Below are positions 44,630 through 59,125 of a stretch of 64,000 nucleotides of DNA, one piece after another; position 1 is the stretch's first letter, and each line of letters begins with the position of its first letter. The stretch lies in IMG/VR virus record IMGVR_UViG_3300044641_010298, positions 32,001 through 96,000 of that record; one strand, written 5' to 3'. The position numbers and the translations under genes were made by a program. The notes under the pieces are model-generated. The model did not search any database. It worked only from the letters and a program-made list of their open reading frames with translations, and was not told where the DNA came from. This DNA comes from a virus.

Positions 44630-45934
44630 TCAGATTTCAAAATATTCGTCCTCGATCTCAGTTACCAGCTTAACTGGACCACCCCAGATCTCGCTGATAT
44701 TTTTTACGCAATTGTCAGCATAGTCAAGCTCAAGATCCCTGCCATCATGTTCGTGAACAAGTATCAAAGTATCCTTCTTGACTTCATCAACGTAAATGAT
44801 AGGAATGCCATTGCCACCCACTGAGTTCAGTAGCGTCTGACGACACACCTTCCATCCGTCCTCATCTGACAAATCATCAATTGTCCAGTCTCCGTTCCGC
44901 TTCTTTGCTGAGTAGGTGAAAAGATTAAGCTTCTCACAAATGTCTCGATCCAGATACTGCATGATGAAAGACTCGTCATTGTGGACCTCCCTTGCGATAA
45001 AGCACTCCTCGATTCCTCTCTCCTCTTCAATTTTCTTGAAGAGCTCAAATCCCAGATGATAAGGGTTGATTGATCCACCCCAGGGTCGAAGAACAAGGTT
45101 ATGAATTCTGAGAAATGGAATGTGCATACTGTCAGGTAGCTCAAGCTGATTTAAAGTACGATAGTGCCAAAAACTTGCCCATCCCTCATTCATTACCTTT
45201 GTCCTGATCTGTGGCATGAAGTAGAGAGATTCTCCCCTGATGATCTCAATAATATCTTTCTGCCAAGGCTTAAGGTCTTTACAATTTTCCTGAAGGAATA
45301 GTAGAAGATCATATTCAGGTGCTAAAGGATGCTTAATCTGATCAGAATCTTTAAGATTTTTTGTATTCTTACTATCCTTCCAGAAAGATTCAACTAGATC
45401 TCTCTCTTCTCTCCTGAATCTTCCTCTCCTGTCAACCTGATACTGAATACTGTGGCATGAATCTATTAATTTCTCAACTCTTTCTATTCCAATTGAAGGA
45501 TCTTCAATGTATGACTGAATTCTAGATCTTGCGCTTCTAAATCTTGTTGTTACATTGTCAGCATCTGTATCTCTAAAAGTTCTGTTCTTCTTAAAGAAAT
45601 CAGAATGACCCACACAATGAGCCATAATCAGAACCTGAAGATATAGAGGATTCTCAAGCATCAGATATGCAATAGAAGGATTTGAGTTAATGATCAACTC
45701 ATAAGGCAATCCCTCAGCTCCTGCATTGTACATGTGATGAGTTCTTTCAAATGACTTTCCATATGACCAGTGAGAAAAGTGAGAAGGCATGCCATGATAA
45801 GACATGTTTCCTATCATCTCAAAATAATCACATGTCTCATATGCAATCTCATACCAGTCTAGCCCGCTCGCCTTAGAGATTTCGCATATCCTCCGGTCCC
45901 AGTCGGCAAGCTCCTCCATGGTCCAATTAGACAT
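44630..45934 (-). CDS. spoVR: SpoVR/YcgB family protein
   Basis: 'GMPSHFSHWSYGK', 'YELIINSNPSIAYL', 'AHCVGHSDFF', 'TKVMNEGWASFWH' and 'NPYHLG' motifs. Confidence 0.92.
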   Translation of the reverse strand: MSNWTMEELADWDRRICEISKASGLDWYEIAYETCDYFEMIGNMSYHGMPSHFSHWSYGKSFERTHHMYNAGAEGLPYELIINSNPSIAYLMLENPLYLQVLIMAHCVGHSDFFKKNRTFRDTDADNVTTRFRSARSRIQSYIEDPSIGIERVEKLIDSCHSIQYQVDRRGRFRREERDLVESFWKDSKNTKNLKDSDQIKHPLAPEYDLLLFLQENCKDLKPWQKDIIEIIRGESLYFMPQIRTKVMNEGWASFWHYRTLNQLELPDSMHIPFLRIHNLVLRPWGGSINPYHLGFELFKKIEEERGIEECFIAREVHNDESFIMQYLDRDICEKLNLFTYSAKKRNGDWTIDDLSDEDGWKVCRQTLLNSVGGNGIPIIYVDEVKKDTLILVHEHDGRDLELDYADNCVKNISEIWGGPVKLVTEIEDEYFEI

Positions 45935-47120
45935 CTTCGATTCCTCCAAAAAGCTTCTTGAATACTGGCCAGATATCCTGTGCATTCTTAATAATGTTCA
46001 TTTTAAACTTGGTATTCTGAAGTGAAACAAGGCTTCCCCAGACTGTCTTATCAACATCCTCATTCCAAGAGCTATCTGAACGAACTCCTGTTAAAATCTC
46101 AGAATATCCAATCATTTGTGATATATCAGCAAGCTCTGCAAATTCTTTCTTTGCTTTTGCATTGTCTTCAGGCCAGTTATCACCATCAGTACAATGAAAA
46201 GCGTAGATGTTCCATGAAGAAGGGTGGAAGCGCTTCATTGCAATCTCTCTGGCAAGTGCCGGAGCCGAGCTAATGTACGTTCCTCCAGACTCGACACGCT
46301 TAAAGAACGAGTCTTCGTCAACTTCCCTAGCCTCAGTTGTGTGAGAGATGAATACAATTTCAAGATTCTCATACTTGTATCGAAGAAAATGGTATAGAAC
46401 AAAGAAGAATGATCTTGCTATGTATTTAACATCTTTCGTCATTGATCCTGATACATCCATCATAAAAAATACAACCGCGCTTGATGACTCCTTTGGTTTT
46501 GACTTAATGTGATGATACCTTAGATCATTATCATGAAACGGGAATAGCTCTTCACCTGTCTCAGGATCTATCTCAATCTCGCCTGCTCTCTTTGCAGCAG
46601 ATTTTCTCTTGATTCTCTCAATTGCAGAAAGCTTCTTGTCAAGACGAGGCTGGATGCCAGTAGTTCTAGTTCCGTGGCGCTTTGGCTTCTCCTGCATGAT
46701 TGTCTTGAGTCTCTTCTTATCAAGATCTGGCAGGCTTAAAGAGTCAAAAAGATATTCAGCTAATTCCTCTAGGGAGATCTCAACCTCATATGCCTCTTCG
46801 CCTTTATCTTTTCCCGCCTTGTTTCCACCGCCCTGACCTTGTTGTTGACCCTTTCTAACAACCTGACCTTCCTCAATGTCTTGACCCGGAGCAGATCCTA
46901 TCTTCTTTTGTCCGGTGTTGTCACCGTATACAAACTGCCATTCCTTAATTCCTCGAACTGGAATTTTTATCCGCTTCTTTCCGTCTTGGCCAATAATTGA
47001 TTCTTCAGAAATAATGTCAGTAATACCATCTCTAATGGCTTTTTCAATCTTCTTCTTGTGTCTCGATCGATCTGAAGCAGACCTATCTGCAGACGTCTTG
47101 TGTTCGCGAAAGATTGACAA
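45927..47120 (-). CDS. yeaH: YeaH/YhbH (DUF444) VWA-domain protein
   Basis: 'MMDVSGSM' MIDAS, 'FISHTTEAREVDE..FF', 'ESGGT' and 'WNIYAFHCTDGDNW' motifs; TTG start with AAGGAG RBS. Confidence 0.9.
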   Translation of the reverse strand: MSIFREHKTSADRSASDRSRHKKKIEKAIRDGITDIISEESIIGQDGKKRIKIPVRGIKEWQFVYGDNTGQKKIGSAPGQDIEEGQVVRKGQQQGQGGGNKAGKDKGEEAYEVEISLEELAEYLFDSLSLPDLDKKRLKTIMQEKPKRHGTRTTGIQPRLDKKLSAIERIKRKSAAKRAGEIEIDPETGEELFPFHDNDLRYHHIKSKPKESSSAVVFFMMDVSGSMTKDVKYIARSFFFVLYHFLRYKYENLEIVFISHTTEAREVDEDSFFKRVESGGTYISSAPALAREIAMKRFHPSSWNIYAFHCTDGDNWPEDNAKAKKEFAELADISQMIGYSEILTGVRSDSSWNEDVDKTVWGSLVSLQNTKFKMNIIKNAQDIWPVFKKLFGGIEDV

Positions 47121-47245
47121 AATTACTCCTTAGGACATTAGAATAATACACCAGCATGTTGATTCGTTCTATAGCTACATATTTAGAAATACTAGCAATA
47201 TTCGTCTCACGGGCTTTATTTTGGATCACAAGAGGAAAAGAAAAG

Positions 47246-47626
47246 ATGAGAAAAATGATAGTAGAAAAGAGTTGCGCTCAAGACAAAGATTCTGTATCTC
47301 TCATCTGCCAATTTTGTCTATTTGCTACAGATCATCTTAAAATCGGAGATACAGATTATAAAGTTGTCATTACTGGGGATAAAGAAAAGCACGGAATTAA
47401 AACAACGGCATATTTCAATCCCCAAACAAATGATCTAGTTATCTTTACAGCTGGCAGACATCCGCACGATATTTGTCGATCAATTGCACACGAGATGGTC
47501 CACATGCGTCAAGGAAAGCACAATTTCTATGGAAAGAAGAATATTAAAGATGTCGGAGGATTCTTTGAGGACGAAGCAAACGCTGTCGCAGGTCAAATTG
47601 TAAAGCTTTTTATAGCATACAGATGA
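47246..47626 (+). CDS. HExxH metallopeptidase-like protein
   Basis: 'RSIAHEMVHMRQ...EDEANA' motif. Confidence 0.6.
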   Translation: MRKMIVEKSCAQDKDSVSLICQFCLFATDHLKIGDTDYKVVITGDKEKHGIKTTAYFNPQTNDLVIFTAGRHPHDICRSIAHEMVHMRQGKHNFYGKKNIKDVGGFFEDEANAVAGQIVKLFIAYR

Positions 47627-47628: not shown

Positions 47629-47922
47629 CTATCTTCCAAATGCGATAATCTTCCATGCCTCTGGAAGGACTGCAATTCCTTCTTCGTGATCATTATCAAA
47701 TGTCTCATCCTCAGCGTCTGTGTGCATTGCTTTACCTTGCGCTGCATCTAGGGCACTATCTGGATCCTCATCTGGAATTACTTCAATTCTAGACTGCGTG
47801 CCTACAGAATATGAGCCAGGCTCGGCGACATAAGACTCTCTCTTGCCTGTAATCTCACCTTCTAGAAATTTTTTAACTTCCTCTTTGATGATTCTTCGAA
47901 CCATTTTTTCGGATATTATCAT
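47629..47922 (-). CDS. Leader-family protein (acidic cargo)
   Basis: N-terminus MIISEKMVRRIIKEEVKKFLE; GATATGTA upstream. Confidence 0.7.
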   Translation of the reverse strand: MIISEKMVRRIIKEEVKKFLEGEITGKRESYVAEPGSYSVGTQSRIEVIPDEDPDSALDAAQGKAMHTDAEDETFDNDHEEGIAVLPEAWKIIAFGR

Positions 47923-47940
47923 TTAAGGCCTCTGTGATTC

Positions 47941-47948
47941 TACATATC
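47941..47948 (-). promoter_or_regulatory. Putative late promoter GATATGTA
   Basis: The 17-mer GATATGTAGAATCACAG is also found at 56524-56540. Confidence 0.65.
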
Positions 47949-47958
47949 TAGCCTATTG

Positions 47959-48780
47959 TCACTCATCCGGAAAAATCGATGAATCAAGCAATACCAGCCT
48001 GCCATCTCTGGCAATTCCAGTATTTTCACCGTTTATCTCGCTAACCCTGATATTGTACCGACCTAGCGCTCGGATGAATCCAGCAAACGTGGACGAGCTA
48101 TCTTTGAGATCACTGCGGATCGAGAGGAGAGAAATATCAGGATTTTGACTTTTTCTCACAATTTCCCCGCCAGGAAAATAATGTCGCAGGGTATCTTCCT
48201 CCCTCAATCTCTCCTGACGCCTGTCATTGTACCCTCCGAGGAGCACACGAATTAGGGTCGCGTATTCCTCAAGGCCCGTTTCCCCTAGAGATTTTGGATT
48301 AGGCAGAAGATCTGTTCGAAAGAATCGAAAGAAATCCGCCTCACGACGCAGCGGCTCAACTTCCTCCATGACGATCCAGGAGAAATCAGGCGCGTGCTCA
48401 TATGATCGCGGAAAAACATCCGTTACGAGATCGTCTTGCCCCATTGTCCAGTCGTCCTGATTCATCTGACCAACATCAAAATCATCTGCTGGAATAGATC
48501 TCAGCCTGTCCTTGGAGATCTTGAGGACACGATTATTTCCAATAGTGAAAGTGACCCGAAAGGAGCCGTCTGCAATGTACTCAACCGGAATCCCGAATTT
48601 TTCTCGCAAGGATTCAACTTCAGGATCATCAGGTCCAAACATCCACTCACCATGTCGACTAAACATCTCCATGAGAATATCTGAAAGTGCATCCAGGGTG
48701 CTTACACTTGTGACCGCTTTCTGCTTTATTGAATCTGCAATAACCTCTTGAATTAAAGATTTAAGTAGATTCATCTTCAT
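47959..48780 (-). CDS. Leader-family protein with protein-kinase-like domain
   Basis: 'IADGSFRVTF' G-loop, 'VLKI', 'WIVMEEV', 'SEINGEN' and 'LVLLDSS' motifs. Confidence 0.6.
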   Translation of the reverse strand: MKMNLLKSLIQEVIADSIKQKAVTSVSTLDALSDILMEMFSRHGEWMFGPDDPEVESLREKFGIPVEYIADGSFRVTFTIGNNRVLKISKDRLRSIPADDFDVGQMNQDDWTMGQDDLVTDVFPRSYEHAPDFSWIVMEEVEPLRREADFFRFFRTDLLPNPKSLGETGLEEYATLIRVLLGGYNDRRQERLREEDTLRHYFPGGEIVRKSQNPDISLLSIRSDLKDSSSTFAGFIRALGRYNIRVSEINGENTGIARDGRLVLLDSSIFPDE

Positions 48781-49645
48781 CTTTCAGAAGCTCCAAGATC
48801 TCGCCCGCCTGAATCGCTCCAACAGGTCCAGTTAGCACCATCCCGAGCAATCGCTCAACGAGATCCTCGTCCTCCTCAAATTTGAGGAACTCGGCGACCC
48901 TCCCGAAAGAACCGTTGATGGTCCGAAGGGCCTCGATCTCCTCAGGGTTGCTCTTGATGATCTCAATCGCATCAAGGTAACCCGCTGAGTACTGCTTGTT
49001 CTTCTCATTGTACGTGTTTCGGAGCCAGGCACTGATCCGCTCACAGGCGAAATCAAGATCGCTGACCCCTTCAACCCAGCGTTGGCTCTCATTGGACGCT
49101 GTACGCTGGATCTCTTTTCCCATCTCCGGATGCTGCCTGTAGACTGTTGCACCGAGGCTATCGAGGAAGTACTGTGGACTTGCGACAAAGTTGTCCTCAG
49201 TGTGGCTCTCGTAGTACTCCATTACCTTACTGAAGATCGAGATGAGGTGCTCGGCAGCACGACGCTGGTCATCTGCATCCTGATCTTCAATCTTCACGTA
49301 CTTCCAGCCGCCGTCAGGATCTTTCACCACACGCCACGCAGCGTCGTCGGCAATCTCCTTGAGGCGCTTGAGACCGGTGCCGGTGATCCAGGTACGGCAG
49401 AAGCAGGCGATGACGTAAGCGACGTCATCGATGTGGGTGGGATCCTCAACATTTGGCAGCGGCTTCGGTGGGTCTTCCTTCTTTGCAGGCGGTGTCCAGT
49501 CCTCCTCGCCATCGTCCGCGTCGGAAGCGCCGTCCCAGTCATCTTCGTAATCATCATCATCGACTGCCTCGAGGACCCGCTTCATCTCTTCCTTGATAAT
49601 GTTTCTAAGTCTTGTTTCATTGATGAACATAGGATCTTCTCTCAT
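48761..49645 (-). CDS. Leader-family protein with shared C-terminal GPxG..QAxE motif
   Basis: MFINETRLRNIIKEEMKRVLE; C-terminus LTGPVGAIQAGEILELL. Confidence 0.7.
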   Translation of the reverse strand: MREDPMFINETRLRNIIKEEMKRVLEAVDDDDYEDDWDGASDADDGEEDWTPPAKKEDPPKPLPNVEDPTHIDDVAYVIACFCRTWITGTGLKRLKEIADDAAWRVVKDPDGGWKYVKIEDQDADDQRRAAEHLISIFSKVMEYYESHTEDNFVASPQYFLDSLGATVYRQHPEMGKEIQRTASNESQRWVEGVSDLDFACERISAWLRNTYNEKNKQYSAGYLDAIEIIKSNPEEIEALRTINGSFGRVAEFLKFEEDEDLVERLLGMVLTGPVGAIQAGEILELLKDEDEST

Positions 49646-49653
49646 GTCTTTAA

Positions 49654-50358
49654 TTATCCCAGAATATTAATGATCTCATAAGCCTGGATGACGCCATCCG
49701 GGCCCGATAGTATCATATTTGTCAAATTTTCTTGATATTCTGGATCTATGTTACTAAAATTCACGTCCCTAAAAAAGACAAGTGCTTGCAAATAATTCAT
49801 GTACAATTCTTTCATTTCTGGATCTGTTTTGTCAAACACAGATCTGAGCTCTTTAATCTCTGTGGATATAATTTTTTCTCTAGGAAAATCTCCTATTGAC
49901 ATCGATCTAGATCTTATCTCAGCCATCTGGTTAAGGACATTATTTATTATTGATGAAATCTTATAGTATTTTCTCATAAATTCATCGCCGAATTTTTGTC
50001 TTTCTAGCGCTTGGAGCCCTGCAAATGTTTCTTCAATTTCTTGTCTTTTTAGACCTGGTGAAACATTTTTAATTACATCATAGAAATCATAGCTTTTGAA
50101 AAATGAAGAATTCACTCTAGAATTCTGTAGCATGTCTCTAAAGCTCTCAACTTCAAGAATTATGTCTGGATTAATGTCTTTGGAATTAGGACTCTCAAGA
50201 AAAATCTTGATGGAATATATGCGAGACTTAATTGTTTCATCTACTCCGAATCTCGCAAGAAGGGCACACATTAGCTGATAATCACTTTCCTGTGCAAGCT
50301 CATATGATTCCAAAAGAATCACACGAATTGCATGACGGATGGAATTTTCTTTTTTCAT
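49654..50358 (-). CDS. Leader-family protein with shared C-terminal motif
   Basis: MKKENSIRHAIRVILLE; C-terminus LSGPDGVIQAYEIINIL. Confidence 0.7.
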   Translation of the reverse strand: MKKENSIRHAIRVILLESYELAQESDYQLMCALLARFGVDETIKSRIYSIKIFLESPNSKDINPDIILEVESFRDMLQNSRVNSSFFKSYDFYDVIKNVSPGLKRQEIEETFAGLQALERQKFGDEFMRKYYKISSIINNVLNQMAEIRSRSMSIGDFPREKIISTEIKELRSVFDKTDPEMKELYMNYLQALVFFRDVNFSNIDPEYQENLTNMILSGPDGVIQAYEIINILG

Positions 50359-50366
50359 GACTTTAA

Positions 50367-51080
50367 TTATTCCAGAACTGATGCAAGCTCTGCAGCCTGC
50401 ATAAGACCTTCCGGACCCTCAGCAATAAGTTCGCTGAGCTTCTCTCGATATTCAGCGTCTATATTAGTAGTGTTGACCTTCCTAAATCGAGATGCGCTTC
50501 TCATGCAAGACACGTAAGTTTCTATTGTTGATCTTGGGATTTTCTGCAATATGAATCTGAGCGAGCGTATATTGCGCTTGGCCCCATCATGAGCGCTGAT
50601 ACCTGCATAGCTCTCTTGACCCTCAGCAAGCATTCTCAAGTTCCTTGCTAGGCCAGAAATGGGAGTCCTAATGTAGACTTCGTGCTCAAATAAGAAGGAG
50701 AAATTCTCATCGATCCATACTCTGATCCTTTTCCATATATCATTTCTCGAATCTACATCAGCATAATCGTAAGCTAGTCCTATAACACTGTCAAGATCTC
50801 TTCTTCTTGCCAACTCAGGGTCAGAGAGGCCAGATTTCAGCGCTTTTCCTACGTTCTCAATGTATTCAATGTCATTTTGGTCAAAAGTTTCTCGAGCGGG
50901 GCTTGCCAGGAATCTAGAGATTGAATCTGCGAACCTAACAACGTTGCTTCTTTCTTCATCGTTTAGCATTATCGAGCAGATAAAATAAGCATTATCATCT
51001 GCTGAAGATGACTTATTTTCCTCTGAGTCCTGGATCTGCTCAAAGATGAGCTGCCGAATTAGAGATTCTTTTTTATTCAT
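50367..51080 (-). CDS. Leader-family protein with shared C-terminal motif
   Basis: MNKKESLIRQLIFEQI; C-terminus AEGPEGLMQAAELASVL. Confidence 0.7.
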   Translation of the reverse strand: MNKKESLIRQLIFEQIQDSEENKSSSADDNAYFICSIMLNDEERSNVVRFADSISRFLASPARETFDQNDIEYIENVGKALKSGLSDPELARRRDLDSVIGLAYDYADVDSRNDIWKRIRVWIDENFSFLFEHEVYIRTPISGLARNLRMLAEGQESYAGISAHDGAKRNIRSLRFILQKIPRSTIETYVSCMRSASRFRKVNTTNIDAEYREKLSELIAEGPEGLMQAAELASVLE

Positions 51081-51113
51081 TGCACTTCTCTCTGATCTAT
51101 TTGTTTGATGGAT

Positions 51114-51791
51114 TCAAATTATTGAGTAAATTTCCAAAGCCTGCAAGAATCCAGATCCGTCAGGGCCAATGATCTTCATGAGCTGCTGCTTCTTTATTTT
51201 TGGGATGTCCTTCATGTTGCTCGCCATCTCGTACATGGAATCCATCAGCCTAATGGCCTCCTCGAGGTCGTCCCTGTTGATCTTTTGAAGCTTTTCGATA
51301 TCTGGCTTCATGCCTCGAGGTGTGTTGTTGTCACGGTTAAACTGGCCTGCGGCCCAGCCATTTGCAAGAGTCCAGAAGATCTGCGGGCTTACATCCTTCG
51401 CGACGCTGTCGTATAGTTGACCCTTGATCCTTGAGATGAGCTTCTTCGCCCGAACTGGATCGTACCCGAGCGCCTCGATCACCACCTTGGGTGCCTCATC
51501 AAGGTCGAAAGGAAAATCCTCTCCGGATCCCATGGACATGATCCCAAGATCAGCGACCTCCTCAGCCTCCTTCTGAGACAGCATGCTGTCAAGACCGAGC
51601 TTGATGAGACGTTCCCTGTTCTCAGGGGTGAACTTTGCCGACCAGCCCGGTCCAGGATTGATGAGCCTCCGGAAGCAATCGACGTAGAGCTCAGCAGGAA
51701 CACTCGGCGGAAGGATGCTCATCACAGTGTATCTCTCGAGCAGAAGTGTCTCACTGATGATGCTACGAATCAAGGCCTCTTGTCTTCTCAT
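51114..51791 (-). CDS. Leader-family protein with shared C-terminal motif
   Basis: MRRQEALIRSIISETLLLE; C-terminus IGPDGSGFLQALEIYSII. Confidence 0.7.
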   Translation of the reverse strand: MRRQEALIRSIISETLLLERYTVMSILPPSVPAELYVDCFRRLINPGPGWSAKFTPENRERLIKLGLDSMLSQKEAEEVADLGIMSMGSGEDFPFDLDEAPKVVIEALGYDPVRAKKLISRIKGQLYDSVAKDVSPQIFWTLANGWAAGQFNRDNNTPRGMKPDIEKLQKINRDDLEEAIRLMDSMYEMASNMKDIPKIKKQQLMKIIGPDGSGFLQALEIYSII

Positions 51792-51808
51792 TGAATCTCC
51801 GATAGATT

Positions 51809-51816
51809 TACATATC
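51809..51816 (-). promoter_or_regulatory. Putative late promoter GATATGTA
   Basis: 17 nt upstream of a leader-family start. Confidence 0.6.
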
Positions 51817-51918
51817 CCGGAAAGGGATTCGAAAATTTTTTGAAAACCTCAAAAACAAAGAGGGAACTTCCCGTCAGTCAAAAAATCCCAGAAGAACATC
51901 CGAGCCTAGCAGCAAAAA

Positions 51919-52254
51919 TCAAGCCTTTCTGGCAGAAAAAATGATGTCACCCTCACGTGAAAAATCATACGCGATCTTCTTTCCACCATAAGCAGATCTT
52001 AGCTTTGACAGGCGGACAAGGGCGCGCTCAGCTGCCTTCTCGCTAATACCGAGCATTCCTGCAATCATCCAGGGAAAAATGATATTTCCACCCTTGGCGC
52101 CGCCCATGCTGTCGACTATGTCAATTGCCGTCCTAAGAACTTCCTCTTCTACCTCTGTCAGAGGATCAGTGAAGTAGCCATCGTTGGATTCTCTAATCAG
52201 AGAAGAAATTTCACGTCTTACGATTCGACGAAGATTTGACTCAGATATGTTCAT
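51919..52254 (-). CDS. Leader-family protein with putative winged-HTH
   Basis: MNISESNLRRIVRREI; 'MIAGMLGISEKAAERALVRL' HTH pattern. Confidence 0.6.
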   Translation of the reverse strand: MNISESNLRRIVRREISSLIRESNDGYFTDPLTEVEEEVLRTAIDIVDSMGGAKGGNIIFPWMIAGMLGISEKAAERALVRLSKLRSAYGGKKIAYDFSREGDIIFSARKA

Positions 52255-52267
52255 GATTTTTTCTCCT

Positions 52268-53140
52268 CTAGTTCACGTCAACGACAAGGATCTTTCCACG
52301 AAGATTCTGTCTCGCCTCGACGGCAGCCTGCTTGATCATTTTTCTAAGCAATTTGAACGCCTCCTGGACCTCCTCGGGTGCGGTCTCGAAAGCTTCAGAA
52401 AAAACAAATCCCTTGCCCGTGATGAGCTCCTGCGTCATCACCTCGGCAAGTGACTCAATATAGGAGCCGAGCTCTCCCTTCCTGGCAGAACCCATCGTTA
52501 GATACTTGTCGAAAGGAACATTAGCGCCCTCATCAATGATAGGAAATAGAGGATCATCAGGGCCCGCATAGTAGGTCTTGCTGCCAAGCTCGATGAAAGT
52601 GGGAGAGATCTTTGAAACCTCCTTGGCCGAATCATCATCCATACCATCAATGTTGAAAAATGCGTGGAAGATCATCCAGGGAGATGCCATGGTCCCACGC
52701 TCGGCGCCCGAGGTCGTATACAGTAAGATCAGATCATCAGGGCCCAGGTCATCAGGAGTTTTCCGATAGCCCATCTTCTGCATCTGTTTGATCTTTCTAG
52801 GCGTCAACGTCAGGACAATACCCCGGTTTGTGACACCATCAGTGAAATCTGTCCCACGTGCGTCAATGTCCTCAATATTTCCGACATAGGGCGCGACAAA
52901 GACTCGAAATGGAAGATGTGCGTAAAGTCGGAGCGCCGTATCTTCAAACTTCTTGCTAAGCGCAAGAGCCGTCGCCGCCCGGGGATTGGGAGAATATTGA
53001 CCAGTTCCGCCTGCTTCAAAATCTTTGCTAGGCTTTCTTGAAAAACCAACGCCCAGCCTTCCAGCATAGGGCATCTCATCTAGCTTTCGAGAAAGCTCTT
53101 CTCTAATGATCTGCCTGATCGTGCTCTCTAGTATTCTCAA
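52268..53140 (-). CDS. Leader-family protein, unknown cargo
   Basis: MRILESTIRQIIREELSRKLDE; TTG start; GATATGTA upstream. Confidence 0.7.
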   Translation of the reverse strand: MRILESTIRQIIREELSRKLDEMPYAGRLGVGFSRKPSKDFEAGGTGQYSPNPRAATALALSKKFEDTALRLYAHLPFRVFVAPYVGNIEDIDARGTDFTDGVTNRGIVLTLTPRKIKQMQKMGYRKTPDDLGPDDLILLYTTSGAERGTMASPWMIFHAFFNIDGMDDDSAKEVSKISPTFIELGSKTYYAGPDDPLFPIIDEGANVPFDKYLTMGSARKGELGSYIESLAEVMTQELITGKGFVFSEAFETAPEEVQEAFKLLRKMIKQAAVEARQNLRGKILVVDVN

Positions 53141-53159
53141 GTGAAATCCTTGTTAGGGC

Positions 53160-53167
53160 TACATATC
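53160..53167 (-). promoter_or_regulatory. Putative late promoter GATATGTA
   Basis: 19 nt upstream of a leader-family start. Confidence 0.6.
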
Positions 53168-53169
53168 GA

Positions 53170-53630
53170 GGCTCAAAAGTGACCCATTTTTCCCGGGAAA
53201 TTTTTAGGACCACTTTTGATTCCCAAAATTCTCTCGGCCCAGATTTTTGAGCTCGCGCGGGAGCCCTCGGCAGATGATGGGGGCGATGGGCCCTTCGGGT
53301 CAAATTTTCTCGGGAAATTTTCGGGAGATCGCGGGAATGAGGGAAAATCAGCGATCCGGGTGAGAGGGCTGACTTGTTTAAGTCAAAATTTTCCGGGCGG
53401 TCGGCGGAGACTTAGGCGGCCCCGGCGCCCTGCAGGGAGCGCCGGTGGGCTTGGGACCCTGGGGGGCCCGCCCGGGGCGGGCCCCCCAGCCCCCTGCCAT
53501 AGGGCCCCCTGGGGCGCCCCCTGCCCTGCCAGGGGTAGCCCTGACGCTACACGAGCCCTACCCAGCCCCGGGCAGCAGGGTGGGCAGCGTCCGCCAGAAT
53601 GCAGGGCTGGGGGGCAGACTGCCCGGTGGC
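53170..53630. other. Non-coding junction: repeated A/T tracts then extremely GC-rich palindromic DNA; candidate genome end, packaging site or origin
   Basis: AAAATTTT-type tracts at 53175-53392; G/C runs at 53400-53630; base composition shifts here. Confidence 0.5.
53459..53489. repeat. Perfect 15-bp inverted repeat with 1-nt centre
   Basis: CTGGGGGGCCCGCCC-G-GGGCGGGCCCCCCAG. Confidence 0.9.
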
Positions 53631-53633
53631 TAC

Positions 53634-53735
53634 CTACAGCAGGCTGAGGATCCAGGCGCTGATGACCGAGCCGGCAACACCGAGGGCCACCATCGTGACC
53701 ACCTGGCGGCGTGTCATGAACCAGTTCCACTCCAT
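53634..53735 (-). CDS. 33-aa membrane micropeptide MEWNWFMTRRQVVTMVALGVAGSVISAWILSLL
   Basis: GGAGG RBS and its own promoter copy; missed by the ORF track. Confidence 0.7.
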   Translation of the reverse strand: MEWNWFMTRRQVVTMVALGVAGSVISAWILSLL

Positions 53736-53756
53736 GTTGCTCCTCCCTACCTGATC

Positions 53757-53787
53757 ATAGTACCACAGCGGGTCGCGGTGACACGCG
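53757..53787 (-). promoter_or_regulatory. Cassette promoter copy (variant)
   Basis: CGCGTGTC-N14-TGGTACTAT. Confidence 0.65.
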
Positions 53788-53788
53788 G

Positions 53789-54577
53789 CTACGGGTTCTT
53801 TGGATCCCAGCGCCTCTGCTCGGGGATCGACTCGGTGTACAGCCGCACCGCTCGGGCAACATCTGTGTGCCCAGCCGACTCTGCCAGCCGCGCGATGGCG
53901 TTGCCCTCTCTCTCTATGATGTCGTTCATCATCTGTGACACCTGGCTGATGTCCTCTGGCATCGTGTTATAGACATCCCTGAGGTAATCAGCTGACACCT
54001 GGTAGGCATCGTCTGTCTTGTCGAGGAAGTCGATTGTGCTGAGGCCGTAGCCGCCCCACTTGATCATCTTGAAGGCTCCCTCGATGACAGTGCCGGCGCG
54101 GATCTCCACCATGTCCATGAGCGCGCCGACATAGCCCAGGATTGACATGCCCATGAAGAAGATGGAGATGTGGTAGGCGGTCTCGTAGGCTTCTAGCACG
54201 GTGGCTCGCTGCGCCGGGTCCAGCCTCTCCTGCTGCGCGAGCGCATCCTCGTACCTCTTCTTCGCCAGCGAGAACTGGACGACAGAGGTGAGCAGCGCTG
54301 TTGTGTCAAATATGAACCCAGTGTACCTCAGGTTCCCCTGGATGAAGTTGGTGACGAAGCCGAACAGGTCGTTGATCGCGCTGATCGACTGGAGGCTGTC
54401 CTCCATGTCTTGAGTGTCTAGCATCTGCAGCACATCAGCGTGAGAGGCTGCGACCGTGGCTGCTGGGTTCTTGTGTGCTAGCCGCCCGGTGTCTGGCTCG
54501 AAGGTCCCGAGCTCAGCCTCTCTCAGCAGCTCTCTCACCGCCTCTCGAAGCAGGCGGCCCTGTGTCGTCACGCTCAT
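53789..54577 (-). CDS. Leader-family protein with hydrophobic helices
   Basis: 'GRLLREAVRELLREAE'; hydrophobic segment 'ISIFFMGMSILGYVGALM'; GATATGTA upstream. Confidence 0.65.
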   Translation of the reverse strand: MSVTTQGRLLREAVRELLREAELGTFEPDTGRLAHKNPAATVAASHADVLQMLDTQDMEDSLQSISAINDLFGFVTNFIQGNLRYTGFIFDTTALLTSVVQFSLAKKRYEDALAQQERLDPAQRATVLEAYETAYHISIFFMGMSILGYVGALMDMVEIRAGTVIEGAFKMIKWGGYGLSTIDFLDKTDDAYQVSADYLRDVYNTMPEDISQVSQMMNDIIEREGNAIARLAESAGHTDVARAVRLYTESIPEQRRWDPKNP

Positions 54578-54598
54578 CGTGTAGCCCCATGTTGAGGC

Positions 54599-54606
54599 TA
54601 CATATC
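54599..54606 (-). promoter_or_regulatory. Putative late promoter GATATGTA
   Basis: Upstream of a leader-family gene within the GC-rich array. Confidence 0.6.
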
Positions 54607-54615
54607 ACCCGCCGA

Positions 54616-54939
54616 TCAGCTGTGGACCAGGGCCTTGCACATCCGGGCGATCGCCACCCGACCACCGCGGCCGATCAGCAGGTCCGGGTCGTGCCCCTCG
54701 GTCACGGACAGGGTGGCCTCGGGGACACCGTGGCCGACGGGCTTCGGCATCCGGGGGAGGAGCCCGTTCCAGTTCACCTTGAACCGGGTCGGGTACCGGG
54801 GATCCATGCGGTCGGTGGCCACGAACTTGTGCTCCTGGCCTTCGGGGCCGACCGCGATCCCGCTGACCGCGGTGGTGCCCAGGGGGGAGACCGTGACGGA
54901 GGTGATCTTGAAGGTCCAGCGGAGGTTGGCGGTGGCCAT
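54616..54939 (-). CDS. Cassette-encoded hypothetical protein (paralog of 61300-61683)
   Basis: AAGGA RBS; own promoter copy. Confidence 0.7.
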   Translation of the reverse strand: MATANLRWTFKITSVTVSPLGTTAVSGIAVGPEGQEHKFVATDRMDPRYPTRFKVNWNGLLPRMPKPVGHGVPEATLSVTEGHDPDLLIGRGGRVAIARMCKALVHS

Positions 54940-54975
54940 GTTGTCGTCCTTGGTTTGGGGTCCGTTAGCTCAGAC

Positions 54976-55006
54976 ATCATACCATTCAACGCCTGAGGCG
55001 CACGGG
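54976..55006 (-). promoter_or_regulatory. Cassette promoter copy
   Basis: CCCGTGCG-N14-TGGTATGAT. Confidence 0.85.
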
Positions 55007-55008
55007 CC

Positions 55009-55128
55009 TCAGTTGAGGCAGTTGATCAGCGGGCAGATCCCGGAGAGGTAGACGAGGGCCGCGACATTGGCGACGAAGAGGGACCCAGCGATCGAGACGG
55101 TGCCCCAGATGACGGTGTCGGTGGTCAT
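55009..55128 (-). CDS. 39-aa membrane peptide MTTDTVIWGTVSIAGSLFVANVAALVYLSGICPLINCLN
   Basis: AAGGAGG RBS; own promoter; missed by the ORF track. Confidence 0.7.
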   Translation of the reverse strand: MTTDTVIWGTVSIAGSLFVANVAALVYLSGICPLINCLN

Positions 55129-55177
55129 TTGATTCCTCCTTCCTGGGCGGTGTCCATCACCGCCTCCTTGCCAGATC

Positions 55178-55208
55178 ATCATACCATTCAGCGGTCAGCC
55201 CGCACGGG
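55178..55208 (-). promoter_or_regulatory. Cassette promoter copy
   Basis: CCCGTGCG-N14-TGGTATGAT. Confidence 0.85.
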
Positions 55209-55210
55209 CT

Positions 55211-55420
55211 TCAGTGGTTGGCGATCCGGTTCGCCGCGGTCCGGTCGAGGTCCCAGCCCTTCTGCTGGACCGTCTGGTGGCTCGTGTCGACCAGGTCCTT
55301 CACCTCACCGCCCACCGTCCGGACAGTGAAGTTGCGGCCCGCAACCTCGATCACCTCAGCCGCCATCCACTCACCTCGGATCCGAACCACCAGGCTCTCA
55401 CCAATCAGGGGATTGACCAT
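55211..55420 (-). CDS. Small SH3/Tudor-like beta-barrel protein
   Basis: AAGGAGG RBS; 'IGESLVVRIRGEWMAAEVIEV' pattern. Confidence 0.65.
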   Translation of the reverse strand: MVNPLIGESLVVRIRGEWMAAEVIEVAGRNFTVRTVGGEVKDLVDTSHQTVQQKGWDLDRTAANRIANH

Positions 55421-55439
55421 GTTGCCTCCTTGTGATCCT

Positions 55440-55470
55440 ATTCTACCACCGCGACCCTGCCCCGCACGGG
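55440..55470 (-). promoter_or_regulatory. Cassette promoter copy
   Basis: CCCGTGCG-N14-TGGTAGAAT. Confidence 0.85.
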
Positions 55471-55473
55471 CCG

Positions 55474-55755
55474 TCAGCCGACCATGAAGGCCGCCATCGG
55501 GACCCGCAGCGGGCGGCAGGCCGTCACCTCGGCCACCCAGGCCTCGTGCTTCGCCTCGGCCTCCGCCTCGAGCCGGGCCCGCTCACGCCACTCATCCTCG
55601 AGGTCCCGGGTCGCCGCCTCCCAGCCCTCCGCCGTGTCGTCCTCCGGGCGGTACCACCGCGGCTTGATGTTGTGGACCGCCTTGAAGGCGTCGACGAAGT
55701 TGTAGAAGGCCTCGACCTGGGCGTGGGTGGCGAAGGAGGCGGTGTTGATGGCCAT
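55474..55755 (-). CDS. Small phage-type hypothetical protein
   Basis: 'DAFKAVHNIKPR' motif; GGAG RBS; own promoter. Confidence 0.7.
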   Translation of the reverse strand: MAINTASFATHAQVEAFYNFVDAFKAVHNIKPRWYRPEDDTAEGWEAATRDLEDEWRERARLEAEAEAKHEAWVAEVTACRPLRVPMAAFMVG

Positions 55756-55791
55756 GTTTGACTCCGTTCTCTGAGGTTGCCTAGCTCTGTT

Positions 55792-55822
55792 ATTCTACCA
55801 ACGGGTCCCAGGGACGCACGGG
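55792..55822 (-). promoter_or_regulatory. Cassette promoter copy
   Basis: CCCGTGCG-N14-TGGTAGAAT. Confidence 0.85.
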
Positions 55823-55823
55823 C

Positions 55824-56036
55824 CTACGTGAATCTTGAGCGGCGCCTTGCATCGATGTAGGCATCACCGGAGTCTTCAGCATCGCCAAACATTGGCTGAA
55901 ACCGCTTGCTGTAGTGAGATCGGGTCGCTGTCTCGTCTTCCTCAGGCTCCCGCCAGGTCTCAGGGTCTTGATCGGGATCAGGCTTTCGTAGCTCTTCTCT
56001 GATGATGTGTCGAAGCTGGCGCTCGGTGATCCTCAC
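55824..56036 (-). CDS. Leader-family small protein
   Basis: MRITERQLRHIIREEL; GATATGTA upstream. Confidence 0.75.
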   Translation of the reverse strand: MRITERQLRHIIREELRKPDPDQDPETWREPEEDETATRSHYSKRFQPMFGDAEDSGDAYIDARRRSRFT

Positions 56037-56055
56037 ATGTGCCCCTAGATGGGTC

Positions 56056-56063
56056 TACATATC
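56056..56063 (-). promoter_or_regulatory. Putative late promoter GATATGTA
   Basis: Upstream of an MRITE gene. Confidence 0.65.
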
Positions 56064-56132
56064 GCCCTGGGCCAACAGCGACAACATCGCACAGACACAA
56101 GTCAGGCCCCAGTGACGGGGCCCGAGGTGGTG

Positions 56133-56513
56133 TTAGCGCGAGCGCTTGATTTGCAAGCCGTGCGGAACTCTTCCCGCCTCTATGCGGCTCTGGATCTCAC
56201 CGGCTGGTAGATCCAAGAATTCATCCGGATCGTCGCCGTACTCGTACTCATCCTCGTCTGGCTCATCGAGGTCGAGATTTGAAAACATGTCATCAAACTT
56301 CTTGCCAAAGTCAGGGTCAGTGAGCTTGGGTCGCCTGAACATTGTGGGCTCTCTCATCTTGCGGGCGGTCTCTGCACCCGGGCCAGAGAAGTCATCCATC
56401 CCAGACTCCTCGTAATCGCCTGTCTCTGGGTTCTTGCGGAATGTAACGCCCTTCCTCATCTCATTCAGCTCCTCGCGGACTATCCGGCGAAGCTGGCCCT
56501 CAGTGATCCTCAT
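56133..56513 (-). CDS. Leader-family acidic protein
   Basis: MRITEGQLRRIVREELNE; GATATGTA and AGGAGG upstream. Confidence 0.75.
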   Translation of the reverse strand: MRITEGQLRRIVREELNEMRKGVTFRKNPETGDYEESGMDDFSGPGAETARKMREPTMFRRPKLTDPDFGKKFDDMFSNLDLDEPDEDEYEYGDDPDEFLDLPAGEIQSRIEAGRVPHGLQIKRSR

Positions 56514-56532
56514 GATGTGCCTCCTGTGATTC

Positions 56533-56540
56533 TACATATC
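56533..56540 (-). promoter_or_regulatory. Putative late promoter GATATGTA
   Basis: Upstream of an MRITE gene. Confidence 0.65.
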
Positions 56541-56671
56541 GCCCCGCTCACCCAGTGCAGGATCAATGTTGCGCAGCGCCAGATCGCGCCCCTTGCATCA
56601 GGATCTCGGCGCCGTGATGCACATCGGGCGCCCCCAGACCGCATCTCCTGCAGCCTGTGGCGCCCTAGTGA

Positions 56672-56989
56672 TTAAGCCTTTGAACGCTTCCAGGCCATGT
56701 AGGCTGCCCTTCCCTCTTCAGCTGATCCGAAGTCCTGTCCGTGAGAAGGATGCGAAGATGGGAACTTGAGGCCGTAACGGAACTCATAATCAGCCTCTGA
56801 CTCACCGGGACCGTCGTCGTCAACTCCGTAGTTCATCTCAGCGCTGCGGTCGTAGTCATATCCGCTGCTGTACCCGCCGCCGTAATAGCCGCTACCACCG
56901 TATTTGCTCCCGCCGCGGCGGTAGGTCTCTGTCATCCTGCTGATCTCTTCCTTGATGATCTTTCTCAACTGCGATGCTGTGATTCTCAT
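56672..56989 (-). CDS. Leader-family Gly/Tyr-rich protein
   Basis: MRITASQLRKIIKEEISRMTE; GATAAGTA upstream. Confidence 0.75.
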   Translation of the reverse strand: MRITASQLRKIIKEEISRMTETYRRGGSKYGGSGYYGGGYSSGYDYDRSAEMNYGVDDDGPGESEADYEFRYGLKFPSSHPSHGQDFGSAEEGRAAYMAWKRSKA

Positions 56990-57008
56990 GTGATCCTCTT
57001 GGTGTCTG

Positions 57009-57016
57009 TACTTATC
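57009..57016 (-). promoter_or_regulatory. Putative late promoter GATAAGTA
   Basis: Upstream of the MRITA gene. Confidence 0.6.
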
Positions 57017-57106
57017 ACCATCCGTAGAACTTTAGCAGCGTTGTGAACACAACATTCCAGAACAGGATCAGCGTTGCCTTCAACAGGGTATCGAGGACCC
57101 AGAGCT

Positions 57107-57322
57107 CTACAGCCTGCCGTGTGATTCGAGCATGGTCACCACCTCGGGCGGTAGCTCCTCCTTCAGGATGCTCTGTGTCCCCACGCGGCCGTCCTTCGTC
57201 TTGTAGCCGATCTGCCATCCGTGCCTCACCTTCTGCTCTACCTCTAGCTCTGTCCCCTTGGGCCACTCAGTGCCGAAGCGGGTCGTGTACTTCTGCTTGA
57301 GAGTTACAACTTCACCAACCAT
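57107..57322 (-). CDS. Small SH3-like hypothetical protein
   Basis: AAGGAGG RBS. Confidence 0.65.
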   Translation of the reverse strand: MVGEVVTLKQKYTTRFGTEWPKGTELEVEQKVRHGWQIGYKTKDGRVGTQSILKEELPPEVVTMLESHGRL

Positions 57323-57332
57323 TCTCTCCTCC

Positions 57333-57644
57333 TTAGCCTAGCGCCCAGCAGAGCGCAGCGAAAGCGATTGTGAATCCGATCTCCATCACCACCCGGGCCA
57401 CATCTCTCGCCAGCGGCGGCGGCATCACCAGGAGCGACAAGCCCACCAGCCCGAGGGCAGCGGAGTACATGATCACATTGGCGATCAGGAACGCCGTCCC
57501 CCAGCCCCCAGCGATCAGGAGCACCGTGAGCAGGGACCAGCACCCGCGGAGCATGAGCGCCCAGGTTGGGTCATTCGCTCGCAGCGCCCGCCACATGTCC
57601 CAGATGGTCAGGGCGCCCCAGAGAATTGCACCGATCGATGGCAT
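57333..57644 (-). CDS. Multi-pass membrane protein (probably leaderless transcript)
   Basis: About 4 hydrophobic segments; TGtTAGGAT 5 nt before the ATG. Confidence 0.6.
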   Translation of the reverse strand: MPSIGAILWGALTIWDMWRALRANDPTWALMLRGCWSLLTVLLIAGGWGTAFLIANVIMYSAALGLVGLSLLVMPPPLARDVARVVMEIGFTIAFAALCWALG

Positions 57645-57677
57645 AGAACATCCTAACACCCAGTGGGTGCTTGTGTA

Positions 57678-57818
57678 TCAGGTTCGAGAGATCTGGGAAC
57701 AGACCACCAGCATCACGACCCAAGCGACCATCAGGCCCAGGAGCCAGGCGGGGCCGTCGGACCAGGCGATGTGATCGACGGCCATGAGCTGGTGGAAACC
57801 CGAGATGACGTTGTCCAT
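57678..57818 (-). CDS. 46-aa membrane peptide MDNVISGFHQ...
   Basis: GGAGG RBS; own promoter; C-terminal TM segment; missed by the ORF track. Confidence 0.65.
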   Translation of the reverse strand: MDNVISGFHQLMAVDHIAWSDGPAWLLGLMVAWVVMLVVCSQISRT

Positions 57819-57836
57819 TCTTCCCTCCGTGGATCT

Positions 57837-57867
57837 ATTATAACACGTGACCAAGATCCTGCACGGG
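57837..57867 (-). promoter_or_regulatory. Cassette promoter copy
   Basis: CCCGTGCA-N14-TGTTATAAT. Confidence 0.8.
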
Positions 57868-57870
57868 TCT

Positions 57871-58323
57871 CTACCCAGCGTCCTCCCAGTCCTTGATCCG
57901 CTGCCAGAGGTCGAAGAGCCGCTTCACATCGGCGAGGGGCAGGGAGGTGAGTCCCTCGCTGAACTTGAGCGAGAGCTCGTCCATGTCCACCGTCACATCA
58001 CCGCCACCCATGTTCACCGTGATGCTCCGGATCGGCTGGAAGGGGACGATGCAGCCCGAGGGGCTGACGGGACGGACAGCCGGCGTGCCGTCAGCAGTGG
58101 TCATGCCCCTGTCAGCCATCAGGACCTCGACGGCCTCCTTCGCCTCCTTCAGGCCGACGCCGGGCCGGTCCTTGCCGCTGAAAGGATCGATCGTTCGGTG
58201 GCGAGAGGCGTCGCGGACCACCTTGATCGCGTTGATCTTGTTGGCGTAGCCGCCGCCCGTCTTGTCGTCCAGGAGCGTCTTCACCTGGCTCATCTCTTCC
58301 GCGGTCAGCATGATCTTGATCAT
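57871..58323 (-). CDS. Ribosomal protein bL12 (L7/L12) C-terminal-domain-containing protein
   Basis: 'NKINAIKVVRD...GVGLKEAKEAVE' matches the bL12 CTD signature. Confidence 0.7.
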   Translation of the reverse strand: MIKIMLTAEEMSQVKTLLDDKTGGGYANKINAIKVVRDASRHRTIDPFSGKDRPGVGLKEAKEAVEVLMADRGMTTADGTPAVRPVSPSGCIVPFQPIRSITVNMGGGDVTVDMDELSLKFSEGLTSLPLADVKRLFDLWQRIKDWEDAG

Positions 58324-58340
58324 CTTTCCTCTCCGTGGTT

Positions 58341-58679
58341 CTATTCTACCAGGACCCCGCGCTCTCGCAGGAGCTTCACAGCTGCGGTGTGCCCGTGAGC
58401 CGTGAGGATCTCGATCGCTTTCGCCTCAGCGGTGGGCTCGTCATCGGTGTCAGCGAGGATGTGACCCAGCTCGTGAGCCTCAATCGCCAGCAGGTGGTCG
58501 GGAGTGCACCATCCCTGGCTGGCGATGCGCCCATCGATCACAGCGACTGGGTACTCCGTCCCGCGGATCGCATAGCCGTGATTCTGATCAGAGAGCCGCT
58601 CGACCACCGTGCCTTCATCTCGGTCCTCAACCTCGACGACCAGCACATTGCTTGCCATGTCGGACATCCTGAACTTCAT
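58341..58679 (-). CDS. Small HExxH metallopeptidase-like protein
   Basis: 'AIEAHELGH....DEPTA' motif; GGAGG RBS. Confidence 0.6.
   Translation of the reverse strand: MKFRMSDMASNVLVVEVEDRDEGTVVERLSDQNHGYAIRGTEYPVAVIDGRIASQGWCTPDHLLAIEAHELGHILADTDDEPTAEAKAIEILTAHGHTAAVKLLRERGVLVE
58343..58373 (-). promoter_or_regulatory. Cassette promoter copy (variant, inside the upstream CDS end)
   Basis: CTCCTGCG-N14-TGGTAGAAT. Confidence 0.7.
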
Positions 58680-58699
58680 CTCGCCTCCCTTCTACATCT

Positions 58700-58730
58700 A
58701 TCGTATCACTTCGCATGCCCGTCACACAGC
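58700..58730 (-). promoter_or_regulatory. Cassette promoter copy (degenerate)
   Basis: GCTGTGTG-N14-TGATACGAT. Confidence 0.45.
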
Positions 58731-59125
58731 GTGCGGACCCAGCCTCCGCCGCGGGGCTTCCCAGGTGCACCACAGATCTCACAGGTGCGGAGCGCAAGCG
58801 ATTCAGCGAGAGCGATTGCACCGTCGATGTAGTCGTCGCTATTGCTCACATAGAATCGCAGCCCGCCCCACTTCTCCTTCACCTGCACCGCGACTGTCTG
58901 GTGGCCCTCATCCCATTCAGCATCAGTGAGGTCCTTAAAGTCGCTCTTCTTCCGCTTCCAGTCCAGGTGGTGCTGGATTGTGTTACACAGCGTGTCGACG
59001 ATGTCATACCAGCCGTCGTCATGCTCGAAGCCGAAGCACATCAGTGTCTGGCGGGGATCGCCCCGCCTGTCACAAAAGATCTTCGGGTATCGCTCACACA
59101 GTGACTTGTCCTTCTCCTCAGTCAT
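58706..59125 (-). CDS. Conserved phage hypothetical protein with C-terminal Zn finger
   Basis: 'GWYDI...QVKEKWGGLRFY...TCEICG...TLC..H' pattern. Confidence 0.7.
   Translation of the reverse strand: MTEEKDKSLCERYPKIFCDRRGDPRQTLMCFGFEHDDGWYDIVDTLCNTIQHHLDWKRKKSDFKDLTDAEWDEGHQTVAVQVKEKWGGLRFYVSNSDDYIDGAIALAESLALRTCEICGAPGKPRGGGWVRTLCDGHAK

Follow-up and report, generated by a model that had tools for sequence, protein, structure and literature searches.

A tag of ten residues suffices to package foreign proteins in bacteriophage T4. This N-terminal capsid-targeting sequence is found on IPI, IPII and IPIII, which are internal proteins, and on Alt, and is cleaved off by the gp21 protease (Mullaney and Black 1996; reviewed in PMC9026906, PMC3012670), which cuts after the Glu of [LI]-x-E (PMC9026906). 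In T-even phages, the internal proteins form a diverse set with the targeting sequence alone conserved (PMC3012670, PMC9026906), and it has already been proposed that this sequence allows a varied protein load in T4-like phages; Alt undergoes C-terminal trimming as well (PMC9026906). In the jumbo phages phiKZ and SPN3US, many internal head proteins are processed after Glu by a gp21-related protease, and the paralogues gp53 and gp54 have an identical 15-residue N-terminus, likened by the authors to the T4 targeting sequence (PMC5694885). Here we analysed a window of 64,000 nucleotides (the whole stretch of DNA, bases 32001-96000 of a single 104,212-base IMG/VR virus record, ~32% complete according to CheckV), in which genes of an array at 47629-56989 share a short N-terminal sequence, hereafter the type-A leader. 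The leader is a modular and phage-specific tag, selected as a peptide and linked to genomes with an S77 protease and to the neighbourhood of the protease gene, and it conserves the cutting motif. We consider it probable, at about 0.6, that it works as the capsid-targeting sequence of T4 does: it would direct proteins to the prohead core and then be removed by the protease.

Like the T4 tag, the leader is a short N-terminal peptide on unrelated and fast-evolving proteins, ends in [LI]-x-E and occurs in a phage with a gp20 portal, a gp21-type protease and a gp23 capsid protein; as in T4, some of the carrier genes lie in the head module and others outside it. Unlike the T4 tag, it is longer (16-22 residues vs 10-19), is carried by dozens of proteins per genome vs about four in T4, precedes bodies that are mostly acidic or neutral and not basic, coexists with a second tag and is known here from sequences alone. 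By eye, the N-termini of T4 gp24 (M-A-K-I-N-E-L-L-R-E) and Alt (M-E-L-I-T-E) resemble the first ten leader residues, a likeness too short for statistics. The cargo-loading peptides of encapsulins, short terminal peptides that direct diverse cargo into an HK97-fold shell, differ from the leader in that they are usually C-terminal, bind the shell protein directly, stay uncleaved and have no link to a scaffold or a protease. In phiKZ and SPN3US, the propeptides are mostly longer than 100 residues, the motif is A/S/G-x-E and no single tag covers more than 100 families (PMC5694885). What the present case contributes is a distinct, longer tag that has a very large repertoire, keeps close synteny with the protease, goes with a promoter motif of its own and is accompanied by a second tag.

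The type-A leader and its carriers

The consensus of the leader covers ~16 residues, M-K/R-I-T-E-S-x-L-R/K-x-I-I-R/K-E-E-L. A leader hidden Markov model (HMM) was trained on IMG/VR sequences obtained from a degenerate-DNA-pattern scan, with the sequences of the contig itself excluded against circularity, and was used for a six-frame scan of the 104-kb contig. An earlier note on this DNA had assigned the leader to twelve open reading frames (ORFs), all of which are present on the minus strand. Exactly seven of them were scored by the HMM, each at the ORF start (47629, 48761, 51919, 52268, 55824, 56133 and 56672; 11.6-30.9 bits), and the best other six-frame match in the contig reached 6.3 bits. 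The twelve genes, with protein lengths in amino acids (aa), are:

47629-47922, minus strand: 97-aa acidic protein, canonical type-A leader; HMM 20.2 bits at residue 1; GATATGTA 25 nt upstream
47959-48780, minus strand: 273-aa predicted protein-kinase-like protein with an apparently worn-down N-terminal helix; no HMM score; 99 homologue clusters
48761-49630, minus strand: 289-aa very acidic protein, canonical leader from the second Met (49630), which is probably the start, and C-terminal G-P-x-G-x-x-Q-A motif; HMM 19.1 bits at Met 49630; C-terminus matches 49654 and 50367
49654-50358, minus strand: 234-aa paralogue, apparently degenerate leader; blastp E 2.7e-14 to 50367; C-terminal motif as in clean-leader genes of locus L007
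50367-51080, minus strand: 237-aa paralogue, apparently degenerate leader; blastp match to 49654; C-terminal motif
51114-51791, minus strand: 225-aa protein, apparently degenerate leader, clean in its L007 relative (phmmer against L007:1572-2237, E 9e-4, both ends covered); GATATGTA 24 nt upstream
51919-52254, minus strand: 111-aa protein, canonical leader; HMM 16.4 bits
52268-53140, minus strand: 290-aa conserved globular protein, canonical leader, TTG start, then L-D-E / M-P-Y-A-G junction; HMM 11.6 bits; GATATGTA 26 nt upstream
53789-54577, minus strand: 262-aa protein, loose leader-like helix, membership uncertain; no HMM score; GATATGTA 28 nt upstream
55824-56036, minus strand: 70-aa protein, canonical leader, GTG start; HMM 30.9 bits; GATATGTA 26 nt upstream
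56133-56513, minus strand: 126-aa acidic protein, canonical leader, kept by metagenome orthologues; HMM 29.8 bits
56672-56989, minus strand: 105-aa Gly/Tyr-rich protein, canonical leader; HMM 22.9 bits; GATAAGTA 26 nt upstream

The five looser genes (47959, 49654, 50367, 51114 and 53789) gave no score with the external leader HMM. Four of them, 47959, 49654, 50367 and 51114, appear to carry worn-down versions of the leader, as suggested by relatives in which it is clean. A C-terminal motif, G-P-x-G-x-x-Q-A-x-E-[IL]-x-x-x-L, is common to 48761, 49654, 50367 and two tandem genes of another IMG/VR locus (L007:1572-2883), both of which have clean leaders, and 51114 exhibits, by eye, a looser form of its G-P-x-G-x-x-Q-A-x-E part. 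The homologues of 47959 begin with a clean type-A leader or, at the same place, with the second tag described below (type B). The assignment to twelve genes thus stands for seven by the external HMM and probably for these four; 53789 is tied to the set only by a loose match and the shared promoter motif. Among the core set, pairwise BLAST similarity was limited to the first 18-22 residues. The description of the twelve proteins as dissimilar has to be corrected, as four of them are paralogues (48761, 49654, 50367 and, by eye, 51114).

Synonymous codons vary between the leader copies, with a nucleotide identity of 58%, and because identical residues share the same codon in 39% of cases, selection acts on the leader peptide and not on the DNA. 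An orthologue of 56133 (P0007) has the same leader and the same C-terminal tail with a different middle. The C-terminal tail of the 56133 orthologues differs from the G-P-x-G-x-x-Q-A motif and is kept even where the middle of the protein differs; both ends of the 48761-type and 56133-type proteins may be functional modules.

Searches of the twelve proteins against Pfam and PHROGs gave no match above threshold and only weak matches to unnamed PHROGs, of which three (47629, 52268) span the leader only, and that of 47959 (phrog_4301) lies over the body. Among the body types proposed earlier, the kinase-like one was borne out at fold level for 47959; the others were not confirmed by Pfam or PHROGs. 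In 36 homologues of 47959, G72, K87, N253 and D266 are invariant, corresponding to the Gly-rich loop, the beta-3 Lys, the catalytic-loop Asn and the metal-binding Asp. Its AlphaFold2 model (predicted local distance difference test, pLDDT, 89.5) gave top Foldseek matches that were all kinase-like (MTR kinase, APH(2''), PRPK and PknB), with a top-ten probability of 0.97-1.00, E ~1e-4 and TM-scores of only ~0.3. The body of 47959 is therefore predicted to adopt a two-lobed, protein-kinase-like fold. In the 52268 family, E22 and M23 are invariant in 13 homologues, and the L-D-E / M-P-Y-A-G junction does not vary even though identity among the homologues ranges over 30-97%. The 52268 model (pLDDT 85.6) had no convincing match with Foldseek (E >=0.14) or VIA-align (Z <=3.8); weak zincin-like matches were seen. 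In both predicted structures, the leader is a separate helix of lower confidence preceding a compact body.

The degenerate pattern gave 124 matches in 117 IMG/VR contigs, a total raised by the HMM to ~226. Met occupies model position 1 in 212 of these 226 matches, typically with a ribosome-binding site upstream, and positions left free by the pattern are conserved as well (position 2 is Lys/Arg, position 6 Ser and position 16 hydrophobic). One match, in locus L029, was rejected as chance; it lies inside a long ORF of a contig of high guanine-cytosine (GC) content. The tagged bodies fall into ~138 BLAST-distinct groups, and a Pfam domain was found in only ~5 of 105 representative bodies (LRR, PG_binding_1, LysM and two DUFs). 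One genome of 284 kb, rated complete, holds 33 leader matches in two arrays, and an uncultured 484-kb phage holds 15. The leader is conserved across contexts of 40% and 60% GC and in distant phages. The motif is not equally common outside phages, being near absent from cellular genomes: the type-A pattern matched 3 times in 596 Gb of prokaryote genomes, vs 124 times in IMG/VR. No tblastn match to the 24-residue leader was found in cultured phages, a full-text literature search for leader strings returned no relevant paper, and an ESM Atlas look-up gave generic helix matches only. Word-indexed protein searches with the leader alone returned close orthologues only, and are uninformative because such short matches cannot reach significance against 5.8 billion sequences.

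Association with the prohead protease and its cutting motif

A T4-type head module lies upstream of the window on the same contig. By Pfam, its protease is a gp21-type prohead protease, its portal is of gp20 type and its capsid protein is of gp23 type, all on one contig:

Head module, minus strand, in order: large terminase; Portal_T4 (1.2e-78); 286-aa protein; Peptidase_S77 (2e-27); two small proteins, then two more; acidic 448-aa scaffold-like protein; Gp23 (1.6e-78)

By capsid protein, the nearest phages in culture are distant ones (40-50% identity over about half of the protein), namely Flavobacterium phage immuto, Microcystis phage Mel-JY01 and Rhodothermus phage RM378, and the source is therefore an uncultured, large, distant T4-like phage. 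The closest phage by capsid protein is the uncultured 484-kb phage, and no megablast match for the region was found in cultured phages. In several relatives, a ribosomal protein S21-like gene is located within the head module, in the interval between protease and scaffold (L004:12652-12873, L079:5543-5761 and the Mel-JY01 locus L127:6143-6370); it is annotated as RpsU in Mel-JY01.

The leader travels with this module. Of the 117 leader loci, 67 contain homologues of proteins of the contig, most of which belong to its packaging and head region. Where the fetched flank contained the protease (~16 loci), the leader gene usually adjoins it or falls between portal and scaffold (~14/16), and one such locus has six leader genes. 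In five protease-centred loci of large contigs and in the window's own contig, the two conserved genes directly after the protease have N-termini that are variants of the leader, and their positions match those of T4 genes 67 and 68. The S77 protease was found in all seven leader-bearing contigs tested of at least 132 kb; the mid-size leader contigs without it are fragments rated 13-47% complete and are uninformative. Two predictions of the earlier note are thus borne out: the leader co-occurs with a gp21-like protease, and its profile, expected to match scaffold and internal-protein N-termini, matches in relatives the N-termini of proteins encoded beside that protease, between portal and scaffold.

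The cutting rule of T4 appears in several places. In the T4 records, the first ten residues are the same in IPII and IPIII and end in I-A-E, and gp21 has L-I-E ending at residue 9, a site discussed in a review (PMC9026906); in the protease of the contig (gene at contig coordinates 11535-12140, minus strand), L-T-E also ends at residue 9. This self-site and the gene positions beside the protease agree with what is seen for the propeptides of the prohead core and vertex in T4 (gp67, gp68, gp24 and the N-terminus of gp21); in T4 itself, those peptides do not head a large family. The N-terminus of the contig's protease (in bases 1-32000 of the contig, outside the window) reads L-L-T-E-W, parallel to L-L-I-E-T-W of T4 gp21. 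The capsid protein, encoded in the same part of the contig, has L-T-E-G near residue 10; of three relatives compared at the N-terminus, two keep it and the third, the immuto capsid protein, has L-F-E-G in its place. The scaffold has an [LI]-x-E density of 4.7 per 100 aa vs 1.2 in background proteins, an approximately fourfold enrichment that is expected if the T4 cutting rule holds here.

In the leader itself, [LIV]-x-E is present at residues 12-14 in 72 of the 89 matches not chosen by the search pattern. Just after it, 84 of the 132 leader proteins left after removal of redundancy have [LI]-x-E somewhere in residues 16-26, vs 30.7 +/- 4.2 in shuffles. The enrichment is specific for Glu (64% vs 6-18% for other residues there), which is usually followed by Ser, Ala, Met or Gly. 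In the window, a hydrophobic-x-E ending had been described for nine genes; we found it within residues 16-26 in eight of the twelve, compared with 24% of background N-termini. At the level of sequence, then, the proposed cutting motif is conserved in the leader and at its end.

Promoter-like motifs and a second tag

An ATANDTA motif had been reported before nine of the twelve genes. This count holds, with the qualification that two of the nine are ATAATTA, located 12 nt from the start, where they overlap the stop codon of the gene upstream and probably just mark the junction of two genes. The other seven are a fixed motif:

Within 47941-57016, minus strand: seven promoter-like motifs, six GATATGTA and one GATAAGTA, with first bases at 47948, 51816, 53167, 54606, 56063, 56540 and 57016, each 24-28 nt before a leader gene

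Seven copies of GATATGTA were found on the minus strand and none on the plus strand, six of the seven before leader genes; the seventh promoter-bearing leader gene (56672) has GATAAGTA instead. The likeness to the motif before structural genes, also proposed earlier, is one of resemblance and not of identity: the structural genes have ATAGTTA, ATAAGTA or ATAGATA, similar to GATATGTA and at similar distances. The non-leader cassettes between the leader genes exhibit CCCGTGCG followed after 14-15 nt by GGTAGAAT or GGTATGAT, elements that look like a host sigma-70 promoter. The GC content steps from ~44% to ~60% near 53 kb (window 53000-64000), the high-GC part being an array of small cassettes. 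Leader genes and GATATGTA are present on both sides of this step, which argues against a chimeric assembly. Because the leader genes keep their own motif where the interleaved cassettes use sigma-70-like elements, they form a separate regulatory class that spans both GC compartments. This class may be expressed late. No gp55-like late sigma factor was detected by Pfam in the candidate ORF, and in a promoter k-mer comparison across divergent IMG/VR loci ATANDTA was enriched just 2.8-fold, too weak to extend the promoter argument to relatives.

A second tag, type B (M-K-L-L-x-E-N-W-R-K-F-L-x-E), was found via the homologues of the kinase-like 47959. It has at least 149 matches in at least 120 IMG/VR loci (L143-L262), and the unrelated bodies behind it number at least 81. 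The loci come from the phage supergroup that also holds those of type A, and both tags are together in at least 18 loci. Among the matches listed, the type-B gene is within ~1 kb of the protease in 12 of the 14 loci holding one. Type-B cargo is richer in recognisable enzymes, with Zeta-toxin/AAA_33 kinases, M23 peptidase, NUDIX, GDSL lipase, HD, GNAT, ParB-N and HAD-type nucleotidase. Type B exhibits no extra [LI]-x-E after residue 14, it is absent from the window's contig, and a kinase-like homologue of 47959 with the type-B tag had no tblastn match.

Probable prohead targeting and the alternatives

Core binding, cleavage, timing and ejection are steps that we infer by analogy with T4. The leader would be a modular N-terminal amphipathic helix of ~16 conserved residues, often extending to [LI]-x-E at residues 18-22, and its carriers would be expressed as a separate temporal class, which may be a late one. 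The helix would bind the scaffolding core of the assembling prohead, so that carriers become enclosed when the gp23-type shell closes, and the gp21-type S77 protease would then cut [LI]-x-E behind its Glu (at residue 14, at residues 18-22 or at both). Some carriers would be conserved core components encoded beside the protease, and others fast-changing cargo encoded in arrays, as in the window. Some of this cargo, for example the kinase-like 47959, would probably exit with the DNA and act in the next host. Delivery into the next host, for which the T4 precedent speaks together with bodies that are folded, conserved and enzyme-like, such as that of 47959, is a tentative proposal to which we give somewhat less than even odds. 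The earlier note had proposed a modular capsid-loading tag with injected effectors: the tag, its protease linkage and the cutting motif stand, and the injected payload is the weakest step, since many bodies are acidic ORFans and possibly degradable core proteins.

Several observations weigh against prohead targeting, or against parts of it. The cultured relatives immuto, Mel-JY01 and RM378 are all without the leader. The peptide of T4 IPII and IPIII shares with it only the M-K start and the I-x-E end, which is not significant, and the leader HMM finds nothing comparable; judged by sequence, the leader does not appear to belong to the family of the T4 tag. One contig of 69 kb, with a completeness rating of 78%, carries a leader gene but gave no S77 match, a possible exception to the linkage. 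In five loci (L035, L039, L047, L070 and L108), a leader protein of 82-142 aa is encoded directly upstream of the large terminase gene, a site where the small terminase is expected, which is awkward for a pure capsid-cargo function. The 33 tagged genes of one genome would make a large payload, and many tagged bodies are strongly acidic, unlike the basic internal proteins of T4. The Glu spacing (14/15, 18/19, 21/22) fits a continuing amphipathic helix, and helix structure may account for some of the [LI]-x-E enrichment. In relatives, Lys often replaces Glu5, so that not every leader has the I-T-E site. Late timing is not established by GATATGTA, which is not the same as the ATAGTTA-type motif of the structural genes. 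Finally, the second tag in the same genomes is unexplained by a single sorting signal.

The alternative that survives best keeps the helix in the prohead core and drops delivery: the helix would be an assembly element only, and its carriers extra scaffold-like parts (cf. T4 gp67, gp68 and gp22), degraded and expelled at maturation. The conserved tagged genes next to the protease, where T4 has its genes 67 and 68, are consistent with it, as are the many bodies that are acidic low-complexity ORFans, like T4 gp67. The [LI]-x-E density of the tagged bodies is, however, that of the background (1.05-1.35 vs 4.7 per 100 aa in the scaffold), so that they are not built for shredding, and some of them are well-folded conserved globular proteins or enzymes (47959, the 52268 family). 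The Zeta-toxin-like kinases, M23 peptidase, NUDIX, HD and GNAT domains of the type-B cargo also speak against it, and we regard it as rather unlikely.

Docking of the carriers to a hub other than the capsid (a phage or host chaperone, a turnover-timing protease or adaptor, a replication or transcription factory, or a membrane) is less probable still. Two tags in one genome are what would be expected for two destinations, the type-B cargo includes ordinary-looking metabolic enzymes (HAD-type nucleotidase, NUDIX), and one tagged gene adjoins the terminase gene; yet such a hub leaves unexplained both the linkage of the two tags to the protease (~14/16 type-A loci and, among the matches listed, 12/14 type-B loci) and the Glu-specific [LI]-x-E enrichment, and no other gene was seen travelling consistently with the arrays. 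We find it very improbable that the leader has no sorting function and merely reflects common ancestry, translation start or recombination. The four paralogues among the twelve genes and the shuffling of modules between relatives, as in P0007 with its familiar ends and different middle, would suit a relic, but it is opposed by the 138 unrelated bodies, by synonymous codons that vary freely at 58% nucleotide identity and by a tag kept across 40% and 60% GC contexts and distant phages. The weakest alternative, a recognition sequence for a modifying enzyme as in ribosomally synthesized and post-translationally modified peptides, with a radical-SAM partner, draws on a CxxxCxxC protein ~5 kb away in locus L063 and can be dismissed, as no linked radical-SAM gene was found: Radical_SAM (PF04055) had no match in the window's contig and three other leader-rich contigs, and its three matches in the complete 284-kb genome are 26-50 kb from the leader arrays.

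Returning to prohead targeting, the two tags could be parts of one address-label system, in which at least two N-terminal tags send sets of proteins to different places or fates in the head (for instance cut and released vs kept, or ejected first vs last). The capsid would then be a programmable multi-compartment vehicle whose payload is swapped by cassette exchange, an extension that we consider doubtful. The two tags, and the exchange of modules between fixed ends, pose the question of how sorting inside the capsid is encoded. If prohead targeting is correct, sequence alone would mark the head-carried proteins of a large and widespread group of uncultured aquatic phages, up to ~30 per genome and more than 100 families, nearly all without assigned function. 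The tagged proteins would be the first phage products met by a new host, and so natural candidates for anti-defence and host takeover. A second, unrelated and longer tag with a large natural repertoire would show the reach of the T4 strategy, and the leader would provide a portable handle for packaging experiments.

Two further features adjoin the leader array. The sole plus-strand gene of the region, at window 47156-47626, codes for a 156-aa protein with H-E-x-x-H and had no family match in Pfam or PHROGs. At window 42694-47120, on the minus strand, are genes for a PrkA kinase (1.4e-142), SpoVR (5.3e-118) and DUF444/YeaH (2e-111), a trio that constitutes a bacterial stress- or sporulation-type module on phage DNA.

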